A DNA stretch of 64,000 bases, from assembly GCF_013315695.1 (NCBI RefSeq), contig NZ_CP054353.1; one strand, 5' to 3'. The translations under genes and the position numbers were made by a program. Origin of the DNA: Escherichia coli. GTDB lineage: Bacteria > Pseudomonadota > Gammaproteobacteria > Enterobacterales > Enterobacteriaceae. This document shows positions 24,105 through 63,824 of this stretch, piece by piece. A model generated the notes under the pieces. It was not told the origin of the DNA and made no database searches. It was given only the letters and a program-made list of their open reading frames with translations. Positions within the stretch are counted from its first letter, which is position 1; every line of letters begins with the position of its first letter.

Positions 24105-25316
24105 ATGGTTACAGTTGTCAGCAATTATTGTCAATTATCTCAAACCCAACTCAGTCAGACATTTGCAGAAAAATTTACTGTGACCGATGAATTACTGCAG
24201 TCTTTAAAAAAAACAGCGTTATCCGGAGATGAAGAAAGTATTGAGTTACTGCATAACATTGCGTTAGGTTATGATGAATTTGGGAAAAAAGCTGAAGATA
24301 TTCTTTACCATATTGTTAGAAACCCAACAAATGAGACCCTATCGATTATCCGACTTATTAAAAATGCCTGTTTAAAATTATATAATTTGGCACATACCGC
24401 AACCAAACACCCCCTCAAATCACATGATTCAGATGATCTCCTGTTCAAAAAACTATTCTCCCCTTCGAAATTAATGACAATTATCGGTGAGGACATTCCT
24501 CTTATATCAGAAAAACAGTCGCTTTCAAAGGTACTTTTAAATGATAAGAATAATGAACTGAGCGATGGGACAAACTTCTGGGATAAAAATCGTCAATTAA
24601 CCACGGATGAAATAGATTGCTATCTTCAGAAGATCGCCGCTAATGCAAAAAATACTCAAGTCAATTATCCTACTGATTTCTACCTCCCCGATTCCAACAG
24701 CACTTACCTGGAAATCGCTCTCAATGATAATATTAAGAGCGATCCATCATGGCCGAAAGAAGTCCAGTTATTCCCCATAAATACTGGCGGACACTGGATA
24801 TTAGTTTCGCTACAAAAAATAGTTAATGAAAAAAATAACACACAACAAATAAAATGCGTCATATTCAACTCATTACGTGCACTAGGCCATGAAAAAGAAA
24901 ATTCACTTAAGCGCATCATTAATAGTTTTAATTCTGAACTCATGGGAGAAATGCCGAATAATGATAATATAACAGATCATTTAGCTGAACCAGAAATAAT
25001 ATTTTTACATACCGATCTTCAGCAATACTTAAGCCAAAGTTGCGGTGCATTTGTGTGCATGGCAGCCAAAGAAGTAATTGAACAAAGGGAAAGCAATTCT
25101 GACAGCGCTCCCTATACGTTATTAAAAAACTATGCTGACAGATTTAAAAAATATTCAGCAGAAGAGCAGTACGAAATTGATTTTCAACATCGACTGATAA
25201 ACAGAAATTGTTATTTAGATAAATATGGCGATGCAAATATCAATGATTATTATAGAGACTTAGAAATAAAACACTCACAACCCCAAAATAGAGCATCAGG
25301 CAAAAGAGTAAGTTAA
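24105..25316 (+). CDS. elaD: ElaD deubiquitinase-like cysteine protease (C48/CE-clan like)
   Basis: 403-aa ORF preceded by AAAAGGAG; strongly AT-rich relative to flanking genes. Confidence 0.8.
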
Positions 25317-59007: not shown

Positions 59008-59901
59008 ATGAAGATAGTGATCACCGGAGGGACGGGATTAATTGGTCGCCATTTGATTCCGCGTTTGCTGGATCTGGGCCATCAAATCACGGTAGTGACG
59101 CGTAACCCGCAGAAAGCCAGTTCCGTTCTCGGCCCTCGGGTGACACTATGGCAAGGGCTTGCCGATCAAAGTAACCTCAACGGCGTTGATGCGGTAATCA
59201 ACCTGGCCGGAGAACCGATTGCTGATAAACGCTGGACTCACGAGCAAAAAGAGCGTCTCTGCCAAAGCCGCTGGAATATCACGCAAAAACTGGTCGATTT
59301 GATTAATGCCAGCGACACGCCACCGTCGGTACTCATTTCCGGCTCGGCAACGGGCTATTATGGCGACTTAGGTGAAGTGGTGGTTACCGAAGAGGAACCG
59401 CCGCATAACGAATTTACCCATAAACTCTGCGCCCGCTGGGAAGAAATTGCCTGTCGGGCACAAAGTGACAAAACGCGAGTGTGCCTGCTGCGTACCGGCG
59501 TAGTGCTGGCACCGGATGGCGGTATTCTCGGTAAAATGCTGCCGCCGTTTCGTCTTGGCCTGGGCGGGCCGATTGGTTCCGGTCGGCAGTATCTGGCCTG
59601 GATTCATATTGATGATATGGTCAACGGCATTCTCTGGCTGCTGGATAACGAGCTGCGCGGGCCATTTAATATGGTTTCGCCCTACCCGGTACGCAATGAA
59701 CAATTTGCCCATGCGCTCGGTCATGCGCTGCATCGCCCGGCTATTTTGCGCGTCCCCGCAACCGCCATTCGGCTGTTAATGGGCGAATCTTCAGTACTGG
59801 TATTAGGTGGACAACGCGCGCTGCCTAAACGGCTGGAAGAAGCGGGTTTTGCGTTTCGTTGGTACGATTTAGAAGAGGCGCTGGAAAACGTAGTCCAGTA
59901 A
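59008..59901 (+). CDS. yfcH: NAD-dependent epimerase/dehydratase family protein (SDR fold)
   Basis: 297-aa ORF with N-terminal Rossmann motif (ITGGTGLIG). Confidence 0.85.
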
Positions 59902-59912
59902 TTTTTTACGTT

Positions 59913-59955
59913 CTTTCATGCCTGGCAATTATTACCAGGCATGAAAGCGCGTTAT
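59913..59955 (+). terminator. rho-independent terminator after yfcH, at the left edge of the inserted operon
   Basis: CTTTCATGCCTGG-CAATTATTA-CCAGGCATGAAAG followed by CGCGTTATTTACC. Confidence 0.65.
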
Positions 59956-59961
59956 TTACCT

Positions 59962-61401
59962 TTATCTACGAGCTACTTCGGGCGCGGCATAGCGAGTGCC
60001 AAAACGGCTCCATTTTGCCAGAAAAGCAAATAAAAGAGCGATCGCAAAGCAACTCAAATTAAAAAACGTCCACGGCAGGTAATCAAGTGTTGCAACACCA
60101 AGCGTTTTCGCCATAAACATCCCGGAAATAGTCCAGGGAAAAAGTCCTTCCAGCAAAGTGGCTCCAGACTCCATGGCCCGCGACATATTCACTTTATGCA
60201 ATTGATGTTCGTCATAGCACGGATCATACATGCTTTTGACCAGAAAAAAGCTAATGACGGCATTTCCAGTACAGGCCACTAATAATGTACTGGAAAACAT
60301 CGTAGCCAGAACGACGCTGGTTACAGAGCGTAATTTCTTAACCAGACGTTGCAGGACAATATTTAATCCGCCAGATGCCTCAAGTGCTGATGCAAATAAA
60401 AATGCACAAAGCATCACCACAATCGGACTGACCATAGAATAGATTCCGCCGCGATTGAGAAGCACCATAAGATTTTTAGCCACCAGCGGATCGCTGGCAA
60501 TACCATCAAATTGTAGTAACATGGTATCTTTAAAACCATTTACAGCGGATTGAACCATATCCATCCATGCAATCGGCTGAAATATTGCACCAATAAATAA
60601 AGCGAGGAACGAAGAGGCAATTAATACTACTGTAGTATCCCATTTTTTTAGCGCACCGAAGAACACCAGTAGTGCGGGAAGCAAACACAGCGGATTTAAC
60701 CAAAAAAGTCGCTGTAATACATCTCTCATAATGGCAATATTCTCAATTTGCTGATTCATTTCATTCAGGCCGCTTCCGGCCCACCAGAAGCCAAAACATG
60801 AGACGAAAAAAGCAGGAATAGAGGTATACATCATATTGCGAATACTTTGCCATAACTCGACGCCCGCAGCCATCGCTGCCATATTGGTGGTATCGGAAAG
60901 AGGCGATAATTTATCACCAAAATAGGAACCCGAAATCACCGCCCCGGCGGTAATCGGTAATGAAACGTCCATCGCCGCAGCCACGGCCATCAATGCTACG
61001 CCGATAGTACCCGCCGTACCCCATGATGTTCCGGTAAAAAGAGAGATACAAACTGTCACCAGGAAGGCTGTCAAATAGAGATAATGAGGGCTTACCATTT
61101 CCAGACCATATAAAACCATTAAAGGAATTGTTCCGGAAACTATCCAGCAGCCAATCAACATCCCGATAGAGAGTAAAATAAGCATTGCCGGAACTGCTTC
61201 TTTAATTTTACTCATAAATATATTAACAATATCTCTCCAGCGCGCACCATAATACCTGGCATAAAAAGCAGTAACCAACGTCACTACAATCAACACAAAC
61301 TCCACGGGGGCATTAAGTATCCCGACGCCAGCCAGGAACAATATAAAAATAATAGCCAGAATGATCATCGCCGAGCTAAAGGATGGCTGATTTATTGTCA
61401 T
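59962..61401 (-). CDS. NhaC-family (Na+/H+ antiporter superfamily) membrane transporter, substrate unknown
   Basis: 479-aa polytopic ORF with NhaC-like motifs (GTSWGTAG, GSYFGDKLSPLSDTTN); low GC; start overlaps upstream gene stop (ATGA). Confidence 0.8.
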   Translation of the reverse strand: MTINQPSFSSAMIILAIIFILFLAGVGILNAPVEFVLIVVTLVTAFYARYYGARWRDIVNIFMSKIKEAVPAMLILLSIGMLIGCWIVSGTIPLMVLYGLEMVSPHYLYLTAFLVTVCISLFTGTSWGTAGTIGVALMAVAAAMDVSLPITAGAVISGSYFGDKLSPLSDTTNMAAMAAGVELWQSIRNMMYTSIPAFFVSCFGFWWAGSGLNEMNQQIENIAIMRDVLQRLFWLNPLCLLPALLVFFGALKKWDTTVVLIASSFLALFIGAIFQPIAWMDMVQSAVNGFKDTMLLQFDGIASDPLVAKNLMVLLNRGGIYSMVSPIVVMLCAFLFASALEASGGLNIVLQRLVKKLRSVTSVVLATMFSSTLLVACTGNAVISFFLVKSMYDPCYDEHQLHKVNMSRAMESGATLLEGLFPWTISGMFMAKTLGVATLDYLPWTFFNLSCFAIALLFAFLAKWSRFGTRYAAPEVARR

Positions 61402-62615
61402 GGTTTCGTCCTTAGCGAGTCAAAAGCACGCTCCAGATCGGCAATTAAAAGAGCGGCATTTTCCTGCCCAAGCGAGAGACGAATTAATCCGCGCGGGATC
61501 TCCGCATCAACCAGTGCAGACTGATTATAACCACGGTTAGGTGAGATAATCAGGCTTTCATAGCCGCCCCAGCTACAGCCCGGTTTGAAAATACGGCAGG
61601 CATCGATAAAGCATTTCACTTCCTCAAAGCCGGCTCCTTTTAATTCGAAACTAAACAGTCCTGAAAAGCCACACATCTGGCGACGAATTATCTCTTTTTC
61701 CTTATCTGTAGCGCAGAGAGGATGACGTATATTTTCCACCTCATCACGAGTAGCTAACCATTCAATAACGTTAATCGCGTTATGCTGATGCGTTGCCATT
61801 CTGATCGGGAGTGTTCGTATACCACGTAACAGTAACCAGGCGCTAAACGGCGAAAGCACGGCACCTAATAGCTGATGCGAGAAATCACGAATGATGCTCA
61901 TCAATTCACGGCGGGTGATTACCACACCAGCTAACACATCACTGTGCCCGGCGAGATATTTTGTGCAGGAATGAATGACAATATCAAATCCCAGACTTAA
62001 CGGTTTTTGAAATAGCGGTGTCGGCCAGGTGTTATCAATTGCGGTGATAATCCCATAACGGGTCGCCAGTTGAGCTATCGCCTGTAAATCAACAATCTGC
62101 ATTGTCATGGTGCCGGGTGACTCAGCGTATATCATTCGGGTATTCAGTTTGATTTTTTGTTCAATAATATTGATATCGCCGTTGGAGATAATGTCATATT
62201 CAATATGGTATTTTTTTGCCAGGTTTTTAACTAATTCGATAGCCGGACCATAGATTTGATTAACTAATAAAATATGGTCACCGCTGTTTAACAAACCGAC
62301 CATCACTGCGCTGATTGCCCCCATGCCTGATGCAAAGCACCGCGCCTCTTCCCCCCCCTCCAGCAAAGCAAGTTTGGTTTCAACCATACTTACGGTTGGA
62401 TTTAAGCCGCGACTGTATATGTAACGCTGGGCTTCGTGACGCATATCATCACAATACTGCTGGTAATTCTTCTGCACAAAAAGACTGGTTTGAATAATCG
62501 GCGGCGCAACGGCACCGAAATACTCATCATGATTTTCATTTATACCGGAACAGGCAAGGTAATCGGATTCGGCAATATTTCCATCATTGAGTAACATGTT
62601 CTGATAACTGTTCAT
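61398..62615 (-). CDS. Cys/Met-metabolism PLP-dependent enzyme (cystathionine beta/gamma-lyase or methionine gamma-lyase family)
   Basis: 405-aa ORF with family motifs YSRGLNPT, FASGMGAIS, AIDNTW, DIVIHSCTKYLAGHSD (PLP-Lys), SPFSAWLLLRGIRTL; AAGGGA SD about 8 nt upstream of ATG; low GC. Confidence 0.8.
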   Translation of the reverse strand: MNSYQNMLLNDGNIAESDYLACSGINENHDEYFGAVAPPIIQTSLFVQKNYQQYCDDMRHEAQRYIYSRGLNPTVSMVETKLALLEGGEEARCFASGMGAISAVMVGLLNSGDHILLVNQIYGPAIELVKNLAKKYHIEYDIISNGDINIIEQKIKLNTRMIYAESPGTMTMQIVDLQAIAQLATRYGIITAIDNTWPTPLFQKPLSLGFDIVIHSCTKYLAGHSDVLAGVVITRRELMSIIRDFSHQLLGAVLSPFSAWLLLRGIRTLPIRMATHQHNAINVIEWLATRDEVENIRHPLCATDKEKEIIRRQMCGFSGLFSFELKGAGFEEVKCFIDACRIFKPGCSWGGYESLIISPNRGYNQSALVDAEIPRGLIRLSLGQENAALLIADLERAFDSLRTKP

Positions 62616-62861
62616 TTTATTTCCCTTATGTTTTTGTACAGAGAAATAGTAATATTATCATCTGGAAAAACCTTTGCACTTTTGCCAGTAACGGACTTGC
62701 CGTGGCAGACAATTAAAGAACAGATTGTAGGAACTCACATTTAAATCATATGGATTATGAATATTTTATTTATAAAGAAAAACATATATAAGCGACAAGT
62801 TAAAATACATTGAAGAAAGGGATAAATAAATGTGAGGAATATAGTTACGTTTACTACATGA

Positions 62862-62893
62862 CTGTCTCTTGCGGTCATGACTGCAAGAGACAG
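62862..62893. repeat. 32-bp near-perfect palindrome between the inserted operon and rpnB
   Basis: CTGTCTCTTGCGGTCA/TGACTGCAAGAGACAG with one central mismatch; 29 bp downstream of the rpnB stop. Confidence 0.6.
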
Positions 62894-62921
62894 ATTTAAT
62901 TAGAATAAAGTTCCACAGACG

Positions 62922-63824
62922 TCACTGCTTCTGGTTCAGAAGCTCCTCTGGCGAAAGTCGGGTCAGCGTCAGAACTAACTCTCGGTCTAAACCTCTCTCC
63001 AGCATCTCCTGAGCAATACGCAGGGCTTCTTCGCGTTTGCCCAGAATTAATCCATCATTCCGCCCTTCTTCACGTAATCTGTCAGCAATAGTCATCAGTT
63101 TCTCCTTTTCTTGTGGTGCGCGTTCCGCTATCTCACCAATAAATGCACGGAAACGCTGGGCATCTCCCGTTTGTAATACGTAATTAAACAGGGCTTTTAG
63201 CTGTCTGTCATTAGTGTTCCCTGTAACTAGCAGCGAAACAATTTGGTCGACTAATCCCAACAGATCGCGCTGACGAATATGTTTCTGAATTAACTCCAAC
63301 AGCGCCATTTTGCGATGTTGCATAATCTCGTCATCTGGCACCACGGTAATATCCACCAGCGGAAAAGCTGATGAATATATTTTGCGGGCTATAGCAGGCT
63401 CGGCAAATTCATCAAGCCAGCAGAGTGAATAAGGATAAGGACTTCTGCAACCATGATAAAACAGCATCGGGATCACCAATGGAAGCTCTTTATAGCCTGC
63501 ATCAAGATGGTTTTGCATCGCCGCAATGGAATAGCGCATCATGCGAAAAGCCATTAATTCTTCCGGCTTACTTTGGTGCTCTATCACCACATAAATATAA
63601 CCCGCTCTCTCCTGCGTTTTCACAGACCACAAGAGGTCGGAATAATATTGCCGCAGGTCTTCATCAATAAAACTGTTTGGTTCCAGTTTAAGCGTCGTCA
63701 AATCACACAGTTTGCGCAGCGGCGCGGGAAGATGAATATCAATAAAATCCCGCGCGGTGTCTGGATGGCGTAAAAAAGATTTAAATACCGCATCATGCGG
63801 CGTGGAAGTTGTCGATATTGTCAT
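62922..63824 (-). CDS. rpnB: Rpn-family recombination-promoting nuclease (YhgA-like, transposase_31 / PD-(D/E)XK)
   Basis: 300-aa ORF with the conserved N-terminal HDAVFKSFL motif of Rpn/YhgA-like proteins. Confidence 0.8.

Follow-up and report, generated by a model that had tools for sequence, protein, structure and literature searches.

An accessory cassette between yfcH and rpnB in Escherichia coli pairs a pyridoxal-phosphate enzyme of a distinct superclade with an NhaC-family carrier and is probably an import-and-convert unit

Between yfcH and rpnB, some strains of Escherichia coli carry two genes that are missing from K-12. They are described here from a 64,000-nucleotide stretch of E. 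coli DNA (contig NZ_CP054353.1 of assembly GCF_013315695.1), termed the window, in which the gene order runs yfcF, yfcG, folX, yfcH, two minus-strand open reading frames (ORFs) and rpnB. The two ORFs encode a pyridoxal 5ʹ-phosphate (PLP)–dependent enzyme and a secondary carrier of the NhaC family, and the cassette that they form represents an accessory variant of the yfcH-(rpnB)-hisP interval, which is polymorphic. It probably serves as a self-contained system for the import and conversion of one amino-acid-like compound, with the enzyme acting at the Cα position by PLP chemistry. Judged by its sequence, the enzyme is not a canonical methionine gamma-lyase (MGL) or cystathionine enzyme and instead belongs to a distinct, ancient superclade. 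The locus contains the following features:

59008-59901, plus strand: yfcH, the left flank of the cassette
59885-62939, unstranded: segment of ~3.05 kb absent from K-12 (blastn against K-12), standing in place of 82 bp of the K-12 yfcH-rpnB junction
59908-59952, unstranded: hairpin with 22-nt arms, an inverted repeat between the convergent stops of yfcH and the transporter gene
59962-61401, minus strand: NhaC-family (PF03553) secondary carrier of 479 aa (ORF with PF03553 and TIGR00931 matches)
61398-61401, minus strand: ATGA stop/start overlap, read from the sequence
61398-62615, minus strand: PLP-dependent enzyme of the Cys/Met-metabolism fold, 405 aa (PF01053; fold type I; TM1270-like "SW-GG" superclade)
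62616-62861, minus strand: AT-rich upstream and promoter region with a Shine-Dalgarno (SD) sequence, an inverted repeat and a TGTGA block
62862-62893, unstranded: 32-bp palindrome just 3ʹ of the rpnB stop codon, an inverted repeat inside the strain-specific segment
62922-63824, minus strand: rpnB, flanking gene (TIGR01784, 191 bits)

The enzyme gene lies upstream and the carrier gene downstream, and their junction reads ...AAA CCA TGA / ATG ACA..., with an AAGGA sequence 7 nt 5ʹ of the carrier's ATG. An earlier reading made from the sequence alone (the sequence-only reading) had described the two genes as translationally coupled through this ATGA, which the letters bear out directly; the 4-nt overlap is identical in a metagenomic enterobacterium of another genus (locus L008). 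The same reading's family assignments also hold, as PF01053 spans the full length of the enzyme (residues 26-398, E 2e-112) and PF03553 matches the permease with an E value of 1e-47. The PLP-binding lysine lies within HSCTKYLAGHSD. Strains with the cassette thus have, as had been proposed, a third PF01053 paralogue.

Against the NCBIfam models, the enzyme falls under the curated cut-off of every named family. Its top match is NF041088, "bifunctional L-alanine/L-glutamate racemase" (391 bits, cut-off 629), followed by PRK05968, a "hypothetical protein" model (372 bits, cut-off 508). The MGL model TIGR01328 scores 327 bits against a cut-off of 549.7, and the MGL-related equivalogs NF005263 (313 vs 617) and NF005695 (298 vs 666) are likewise below theirs, as are the best scores for cystathionine gamma-synthase (CGS; 308 vs 513), cystathionine beta-lyase (CBL; 284 vs 366), cystathionine gamma-lyase (CGL; 282 vs 594) and sulfhydrylase (278 vs 522). 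This ranking is not peculiar to the E. coli protein: NF041088 is the best model in all 19 of the 19 clade members tested (374-708 bits), PRK05968 comes second, and the MGL model is third wherever it is scored among the matches listed. The member from Mesoaciditoga (L056) provides a positive control, reaching 708 bits with NF041088 and so exceeding 629. NF041088 carries an archaeal name ("ala_glut_racmase_Arch"), although the solved structure is that of Thermotoga maritima TM1270.

Motif comparison over 119 relatives and a wider set of loci distinguishes the clade from canonical members of the family. Where canonical enzymes have Y-x-R-x-G-NPT, the clade has Y-x-R-G-x-NPT; the Y-G-C of MGL, or Y-G-G, becomes Y-G-P, with Pro124 invariant in the clade; DNTF becomes DNTW, RGxKT becomes RGLRTL and SLG becomes SW-GG; and a 4-residue deletion removes the "(S/A)MTH" loop. 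The statement that all family motifs are present therefore stands for the catalytic Tyr, Asp, Lys and Arg but not for SLG and "(S/A)MTH," which are replaced or deleted. In an alignment of 18 clade sequences, the PLP lysine K219 (HSCTKY, with the S-x-T-K pattern), D194 as the partner of the pyridine nitrogen, the stacking Y122, the carboxylate-binding R379 and the Y67/R69 phosphate clamp are invariant, and Y122, D194, K219, S348, E353 and R379 are invariant in the clade. TM1270 (PDB 9iz5) has RGxNPT, DNTW, RGLRTL, SW-G and the MTH deletion like the clade, but not YGP.

The same division is evident by neighbor-joining. The "SW-GG" superclade, which includes 9iz5, separates from MGL and CGS with 99% bootstrap, and the enterobacterial clade is recovered at 100%. 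Within the superclade, the E. coli–type clade (YGP, GGYESL) falls outside the racemase subclade (YSW, GSHENL), a split with moderate bootstrap. TM1270 is the sole characterized member of the superclade; the entry for 9iz5 is titled "multifunctional PLP-dependent enzyme" and its molecule is named L-Ala/L-Glu racemase. Identity to solved structures is flat, at 39% to 9iz5, 38% to the MGL of Fusobacterium nucleatum and 42% to the CGS of Helicobacter pylori. The AlphaFold model (pLDDT 83) likewise matches MGL, CGL and TM1270 structures with Foldseek TM scores of 0.8-0.87, or 0.8-0.85 for MGL and TM1270 alone, and because MGL and 9iz5 structures match equally well, the predicted fold cannot separate a racemase from a lyase. 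The reaction could be either an elimination or a racemization. The earlier assignment of the protein as a C-S lyase for sulfur amino acids is not supported: it scores below all MGL, CGS, CBL and CGL cut-offs, has YGP rather than YGC and sits in a separate superclade with 99% support.

The carrier passes TIGR00931 at 413 bits (cut-off 370) and reaches only 224 bits with the ArcD model, for which the cut-off is 650. A structure search returned no solved structure among its relatives. The NhaC superfamily includes amino-acid transporters, as the sequence-only reading had stated. MetT is an NhaC-family carrier (PMC3228920, PMC2940859); further cases are the mdeA-metT operon, members controlled by a Tyr T-box and an ornithine operon that ends in nhaC (PMC3228920, PMC2940859, PMC6615313, PMC2494555), and the cargo known for the family comprises malate/lactate, Arg/Orn, Met and Tyr (PMC6615313, PMC2494555, PMC3228920). 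For the E. coli carrier, the coupling to a PLP enzyme and the presence of homologues in catabolic operons speak against Na+/H+ exchange as its role. The equivalog name "Na+/H+ antiporter NhaC" is over-applied.

The recurrence of the pair strongly supports the view that the two proteins work together. A scan of one genome per species with clade-specific peptide patterns, combined with loci gathered before, gave 88 loci. In 31 of these, the enzyme and NhaC genes are adjacent, in two gene orders and across at least eight phyla. The enzyme precedes the carrier wherever enzyme identity is 47% or more, in loci that cover Enterobacteriaceae, halophilic Bacillaceae, Streptomyces/Nocardiopsis and Salinicola, and this order also occurs in a metagenome-assembled genome (MAG) of Alteromonadaceae, in Acidobacteria, in Maricaulis and in Sphingomonadaceae. 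The reverse order is found in 13 loci from Bacteroidota, KSB1, Calditrichia, Verrucomicrobia, Shewanella and Microbulbifer. Furthermore, the taxonomic profiles of the two proteins match, with Enterobacteriaceae at 65-83% identity followed by halophilic Bacillaceae, Streptomonospora/Streptomyces and Salinicola at 41-49%; about 27 contigs are common to the lists of the 120 best homologues of enzyme and carrier, and the identity of both proteins to the E. coli pair declines in parallel. The proposal of an uptake-plus-enzyme unit is thereby supported from Enterobacteriaceae to Bacillaceae, Actinobacteria, Halomonadaceae, Bacteroidota and others. Eight loci with the E. coli gene order, whose holders include Firmicutes, Actinobacteria and Halomonadaceae, additionally have a divergent GntR/FCD regulator, which is not adjacent to the E. 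coli cassette.

Other transporters accompany the superclade as well. ATP-binding cassette (ABC) systems of the CUT1 type lie beside its members in 16 loci, L056 included; one member shares an operon with a peptide ABC system and an M42 aminopeptidase, and another stands beside the IIC component of a phosphotransferase system (PTS). The common theme of these loci is an imported substrate, and the idea of uptake plus conversion is therefore supported in its general form. In the Mesoaciditoga MAG (L056, 181-4381), the enzyme gene is directly behind a sugar-type CUT1 transporter made up of a binding protein and two permeases, and in a Spirochaetaceae MAG (L073, 2588-9132), a member of the YSW subclade lies behind the same type of transporter together with a LacI/RbsR-like regulator and a ribokinase-like kinase. 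Since both stand behind sugar-type transporters, the physiological substrate of the "racemase" family may not be free Ala or Glu.

The recurrent neighbors of the relatives are overwhelmingly of a carbohydrate type. They include LacI/RbsR-like and GntR regulators, ribokinase-like/PfkB and ROK kinases and ManA, as well as an alpha-galactosidase with galactokinase (GalK), rhamnosidase-like and alginate-lyase-like proteins and Gfo/Idh/MocA dehydrogenases, and the CUT1 binding proteins nearby are weakly similar to sugar binders. No recurrent sulfur-metabolism neighbor was found in the 88 loci. The sole neighbor of a sulfur type is a canonical PF01053 protein in Radiobacillus deserti (L007, 10739-11881; DNTF, "STSH," 30% identical), where a Zn-dependent alcohol dehydrogenase also lies downstream of the cassette. 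The most telling context is that of a Cetobacterium MAG (L093, 7485-9506), where a 673-aa fusion protein combines an SMP30/gluconolactonase (SGL) domain with a clade enzyme; the latter shares 46% identity with the E. coli enzyme and shows every clade motif. The operon of the fusion further encodes an NhaC protein (42% identical), a short-chain dehydrogenase/reductase (SDR) resembling glucose-1-dehydrogenase, an IlvD/Edd dehydratase, an RraA-like aldolase and a GntR/FCD regulator, and the fusion ties the enzyme clade to lactone and sugar-acid chemistry. In Cytobacillus firmus (L095, 6001-7476), an NhaC homologue with 41% identity is located inside a cluster for the non-phosphorylative L-fucose pathway. 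That cluster holds a lactonase-like amidohydrolase, a UxaA-type dehydratase, two SDRs, a fumarylacetoacetate (FAA) hydrolase, FucU and an alpha-L-fucosidase; its NhaC is annotated as Na+/H+ antiporter NhaC, and the cargo there may be fucose or the lactate end-product. These contexts suggest, on grounds of gene neighborhood, that amino-aldonic acids, glycosylated amino acids or similar compounds might be handled. However, the contexts with sugar genes come mostly from sister clades, and the loci of the E. coli type hold only regulator, enzyme and carrier.

From these observations of gene anatomy, family and clade placement, conserved pairing and distribution, we infer the transport direction, reaction class, substrate and regulation of the system as follows. 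The NhaC-family protein would act as a cation-coupled importer or exchanger of one alpha-amino-acid-like carboxylate and not as a housekeeping Na+/H+ antiporter. The translationally coupled cytoplasmic enzyme would then take up the compound as an external aldimine on Lys219 and transform it at Cα, most likely by a deaminating beta- or gamma-elimination that would yield a 2-oxo acid and NH4+, or alternatively by racemization or epimerization. The product would join core metabolism without further dedicated genes. Several points weigh against this proposal. Adjacency of two genes alone is no proof that the carrier moves the substrate of the enzyme and not its product. TIGR00931, which the carrier passes, is an equivalog model for the Na+/H+ antiporter NhaC, and by sequence the protein would also be compatible with antiport. 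The nearest characterized relative of the enzyme, at ~39% identity, is about as close as MGL and CGS, and neither this comparison nor that of structures discriminates between reaction types.

In front of the enzyme gene is an SD sequence, AAGGGA, at 62622-62627. Upstream of it, the inverted repeat TGCCA-N15-TGGCA occupies 62683-62707 and a TGTGA block 62735-62739, and both are common to the two E. coli alleles and L008; Citrobacter braakii and Enterobacter ENT03 retain the TGTGA and TGGCA blocks. The TGTGA block is a candidate CRP half-site, a possible one by its motif, and the -35 region is weak. An activator-dependent promoter of the catabolite type probably drives the cassette, to judge from these elements. 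A sigma-54 promoter at TGGCA...TGCA was considered and rejected, as the GG-to-GC spacing is wrong by eye. Rfam gave no match in the window region (E<=1) and none upstream of the enzyme gene in eight related loci, where S-box, S-adenosylmethionine (SAM) and T-box elements were all missing. By eye, no tandem MetJ box was seen, and a single isolated 7/8 match occurs at the rpnB stop codon. The GntR/FCD regulators of the related loci resemble LldR, NanR, GlcC and PdhR only weakly, and no inducer can therefore be deduced from them.

The candidate substrates can be weighed against this evidence. A sulfur amino-acid system, in which the carrier imports Met, homocysteine, cystathionine, Cys or an S-conjugate and a gamma- or beta-acting C-S lyase releases a thiol, a 2-oxo acid and ammonia, is possible, though we lean against it. 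Sulfur or gamma-substituted amino acids are the substrates of most characterized PF01053 enzymes, the catalytic set competent for elimination is kept and the PDB title of TM1270 says "multifunctional"; the Radiobacillus locus, moreover, has its second, canonical PF01053 gene just downstream. There are also operon precedents in mdeA-metT (PMC6615313) and in the megL-nhaC pair of F. nucleatum, and MetT belongs to the NhaC family (PMC3228920, PMC2940859). Yet the enzyme stays under the cut-off of all MGL, CGS, CBL, CGL and sulfhydrylase models, the hallmark Cys of MGL is an invariant Pro in the clade and the SLG and MTH motifs of the substrate region are replaced or deleted. Searches of the window and of the upstream regions of the eight loci gave no S-box, SAM or T-box element, and the 88 loci offer sugar-type transporters, kinases, glycosidases and sugar-acid enzymes in place of a recurrent sulfur neighbor. 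Salvage of D-amino acids, with the carrier importing, for instance, D-Glu or D-Ala from peptidoglycan debris and the enzyme racemizing it to the L-form, appears unlikely. It draws on the annotation of the one characterized superclade member as an L-Ala/L-Glu racemase (NF041088; PDB 9iz5), on the five derived sequence characters in common with TM1270 and on the relative whose operon also encodes a peptide ABC transporter and an M42 aminopeptidase; a racemase and an importer would also be metabolically self-sufficient. However, the E. coli–type clade lies outside the racemase subclade (YGP vs YSW; 391 vs 629 bits), an argument tempered by the only moderate bootstrap of that split, and a bona fide NF041088 member, L056 at 708 bits, sits behind a sugar-type ABC system, so that racemase activity may not be the physiological one. 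E. coli, in addition, already has DadX, Alr, MurI and DadA.

A sugar-derived amino acid is quite unlikely, to be entertained only tentatively. The compound would be a 2-amino-2-deoxy-aldonate, such as D-glucosaminate or D-galactosaminate, or a glycosylated hydroxy-amino acid, which the enzyme would deaminate or epimerize; glucosaminate, in this doubtful scheme, would give 2-keto-3-deoxy-gluconate (KDG), used by the core enzymes KdgK and Eda. The Cetobacterium fusion of SMP30/gluconolactonase in a sugar-acid-type operon with NhaC speaks for it, as do the CUT1 ABC, LacI/GntR, PfkB/ROK, ManA, PTS IIC, alpha-galactosidase plus GalK and Gfo/Idh/MocA flanks of relatives and the FCD regulators, which are nearest to the LldR, NanR and GlcC types, sensors of hydroxy and sugar acids. 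D-glucosaminate is D-configured at C2 and would suit a clade that handles both enantiomers. KDG kinase and Eda genes were sought next to the cassette as a test for amino-aldonates; they were found once only, ~5 kb upstream in Virgibacillus. However, the supporting contexts derive mostly from sister clades with 38-46% identity, E. coli–type loci carry nothing besides regulator, enzyme and carrier, no biochemical precedent is known for a PF01053 enzyme acting on amino-aldonates, and the alpha-galactosidase with GalK and ROK kinase with ManA contexts map poorly onto this chemistry. That NhaC is literally a Na+/H+ antiporter for ion or pH homeostasis, with the PLP enzyme unrelated or merely co-expressed, is highly improbable. 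The TIGR00931 score (413 vs 370 bits) and the enrichment of halophiles among the relatives fit such a role, but linkage to one enzyme clade in at least eight phyla and in two orders, translational coupling in enterics and the homologues of ~41-42% identity inside catabolic operons (the L-fucose pathway and the Cetobacterium sugar-acid operon) argue against it, and the family carries malate/lactate, Arg/Orn, Met and Tyr (PMC6615313, PMC2494555, PMC3228920). The remainder of the probability belongs to other amino acids, beyond the sulfur-containing, D-configured and sugar-derived ones.

In a survey of 5426 complete E. coli genomes, the cassette segment is present in 68, always on the chromosome and in a single copy. 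Sixty-seven of the 68 carriers, IAI39 and CE10 among them, are at least 99.7% identical, whereas 4686 of the 5426 genomes have the empty yfcH-rpnB junction of the K-12 type. The description of the segment as accessory is thus upheld by comparing the yfcH-rpnB interval across the species, with 68 of 5426 genomes carrying it and K-12 lacking it. The yfcH-hisP interval occurs in three states, namely yfcH-rpnB-hisP, yfcH-hisP without rpnB (e.g., THO-003) and yfcH-cassette-rpnB-hisP, and rpnB is therefore itself a presence/absence polymorphism. The 3ʹ end of rpnB varies between alleles, the protein having 300 aa here and 296 aa in K-12. The goat isolate R32_14_1F (L096, 3543-6298) has a cassette allele that is only 92% identical in DNA sequence at exactly the same site, where it adjoins an rpnB of K-12 length (891 bp). 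This divergence is judged to exceed normal within-species variation and may reflect either import from a different Escherichia lineage or a polymorphism of great age.

Outside E. coli, the cassette occupies the syntenic site in the metagenomic enterobacterium L008, where hisP and yfcH flank it. Identity to the E. coli proteins is 78% and 84% for the cassette pair and 72-92% for the flanking proteins, so the divergence of the cassette does not stand out from that of the core genes around it. Elsewhere, the position differs: in Enterobacter lignolyticus, the cassette is beside the transfer-messenger RNA (tmRNA) gene, and in C. braakii, the orthologue lies between uvrB and moaA. Some copies appear decayed. 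The NhaC gene of E. lignolyticus (L003, 9227-10662) is split into ORFs of 109 aa and 384 aa; in the NZ_CP115358.1 / NZ_CP146670.1 set, the NhaC gene of E. coli CUVET19-1704 is annotated as two pieces and the cassette of E. coli MS 21-1 is interrupted, with 78% coverage in two places. These copies suggest relaxed selection in some hosts.

At the locus itself, yfcH and rpnB are neighbors in K-12, as the sequence-only reading had it, and lie 47 bp apart. Identity to K-12 is 98.6% up to 59884, that is, to within the last 17 nt of yfcH, and homology restarts within rpnB, at 62940. Over the ~200 bp that follow, at the 3ʹ end of rpnB, identity to K-12 is just 65-83% (0.65, 0.83 and then 0.96-1.0 in successive 100-bp windows), and the exchanged tract therefore ends inside rpnB. 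The picture of extra DNA placed between the two genes is right in that ~3 kb are absent from K-12, but each boundary falls within a gene, one in yfcH and the other in rpnB, as homologous replacement would predict. Neither an integrase or transposase gene nor a tRNA target is found at the cassette, and a search of the boundaries gave only chance-level direct repeats, none of them flanking. PADLOC returned no defense-system match.

The segment 59885-62939 has a GC content of 0.430, compared with 0.513 for the whole window, and 400-bp windows spanning the promoter region (62616..62861) fall to 0.355-0.362. GC at third codon positions (GC3) is 0.434 and 0.449 in the two cassette genes against a window mean of 0.557 (standard deviation [sd] 0.085), ~1.3-1.4 sd lower, which places them among the six lowest-GC3 of the 51 ORFs in the window. 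The segment is thus AT-richer than its flanks by calculation, as had been claimed from its appearance, but modestly so and in common with rpnB and elaD; rpnB, folX and elaD are as low as the cassette in composition or lower. The lowest-GC ORF of the window, 24105-25316 (GC 0.35), is elaD, an ElaD/SseL-family deubiquitinase gene that is normal in K-12. Low GC alone is therefore no marker of strain-specific DNA here, and orthologous cassettes of enterobacteria range from 0.42 to 0.60 GC. Low GC as proof of foreign origin was rejected on both grounds. Horizontal acquisition is consistent with absence from most E. coli, but mobility genes and repeats are lacking, and the syntenic copy in L008 and the 92% allele point to an old locus. 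A recent foreign insertion is uncertain; the data agree no less well with an old resident that was mostly lost, or that homologous recombination re-spread among Escherichia lineages.

Both inverted repeats that bound the cassette fold much more stably than shuffled controls do. For the hairpin at 59908-59952, the folding energy is -27.4 kcal/mol on the plus strand and -29.9 kcal/mol on the minus strand (z -8.8 and -7.7), and for the palindrome at 62862-62893 it is -19 to -23 kcal/mol (z -5 to -6.5). No U-tract follows either hairpin on the operon strand; at 59908-59952, a U-rich tail exists on the yfcH strand only. The hairpin proposed as a terminator is thus real and strong but has no U-tract on the strand of the operon, and it is probably a transcript end or an insulator. 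The 32-bp palindrome beside rpnB is also genuine, as its fold shows, and probably marks the end of the rpnB transcript, shielding the cassette promoter. It occurs once in the window and, among the genomes surveyed, only in the 68 that bear the cassette, once in each, which rules it out as a repeated element. In the 92% allele it is kept with a different loop, and it is absent from L008, which has no rpnB.

The enzymes in question make up a branch of the textbook family PF01053 that has 99% support but almost no function assigned to it. Annotations commonly call its members cystathionine lyase or synthase or homocysteine desulfhydrase, and an equivalog rule labels their partner carriers Na+/H+ antiporter NhaC; in hundreds of genomes from many phyla, both labels are probably wrong. 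Present in IAI39 and CE10 and absent from K-12, the cassette makes the function of the pair tractable in E. coli. It may be a nutritional niche trait of a minority E. coli lineage that includes extraintestinal pathogens. The locus also illustrates a tri-allelic hotspot that is upheld by homologous recombination rather than by mobile elements. As a long shot, the cassette might be the minimal form of a widespread, unrecognized pathway that turns D-configured or sugar-derived alpha-amino acids (e.g., D-glucosaminate) into a 2-keto-3-deoxy sugar acid. If this were true, a poorly assigned activity would gain a gene family, a whole branch of the "trans-sulfuration" family would be unrelated to sulfur and many "Na+/H+ antiporter NhaC" annotations would be wrong. 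A literature search yielded nothing usable on TM1270, the archaeal Ala/Glu racemase, glucosaminate ammonia-lyase or the two RefSeq proteins.

In its logic, the cassette resembles two known systems of enteric bacteria, dsdCXA of E. coli, which combines a D-serine carrier with a PLP deaminase, and dgaABCDEF of Salmonella, which combines a D-glucosaminate PTS with a PLP ammonia-lyase. In each, a strain-variable importer is joined to one PLP enzyme whose product enters central metabolism. However, the proteins belong to unrelated families (GntP or PTS carriers; fold-type II or SelA-like enzymes), and the likeness is one of analogy only. Citrobacter freundii is said, in a 2005 report by Manukhov et al., to have megL with an adjacent permease gene, which would likewise be an enterobacterial accessory two-gene unit with a PF01053 enzyme followed by a permease. 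Unlike the cassette enzyme, C. freundii MegL (PDB 1y4i, 2rfv) is a canonical MGL, and it is a much weaker match to the E. coli enzyme (226 bits); the C. braakii cassette orthologue between uvrB and moaA is separate from the megL pair.

On the side of the carrier, the PF03553 fold is shared with NhaC of alkaliphilic Bacillus, MleN, ArcD and MetT (TC 2.A.35), but in contrast to the Bacillus NhaC, the E. coli carrier has a PLP enzyme as its constant partner and close homologues in catabolic operons. On the side of the enzyme, TM1270 (9iz5) is in the same superclade (99%) and shares RGxNPT, DNTW, RGLRTL, SW-G and the deleted MTH loop; at 39% identity, however, it belongs to another subclade, with YSW/GSHENL where the E. 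coli enzyme has YGP/GGYESL, and NF041088 members above the cut-off sit behind CUT1 ABC transporters, whereas the E. coli enzyme is beside NhaC. The closest known architecture is that of two anaerobe systems, the Clostridium mdeA-metT operon of a PLP enzyme and an NhaC-family carrier (PMC6615313) and F. nucleatum megL, which is co-induced with the neighboring NhaC gene (PMC9239216). Like the cassette, both place a PF01053 enzyme beside a co-regulated NhaC-family carrier for uptake plus degradation, an analogy that favors a small amino acid as the substrate. Their enzymes differ in being canonical MGLs with YGC, SLG and MTH (PDB 7bqw); the E. coli enzyme has 38% identity with F. nucleatum MGL, fails TIGR01328 (327 vs 549.7) and belongs to the other superclade. 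The architecture of the cassette is of a known kind.

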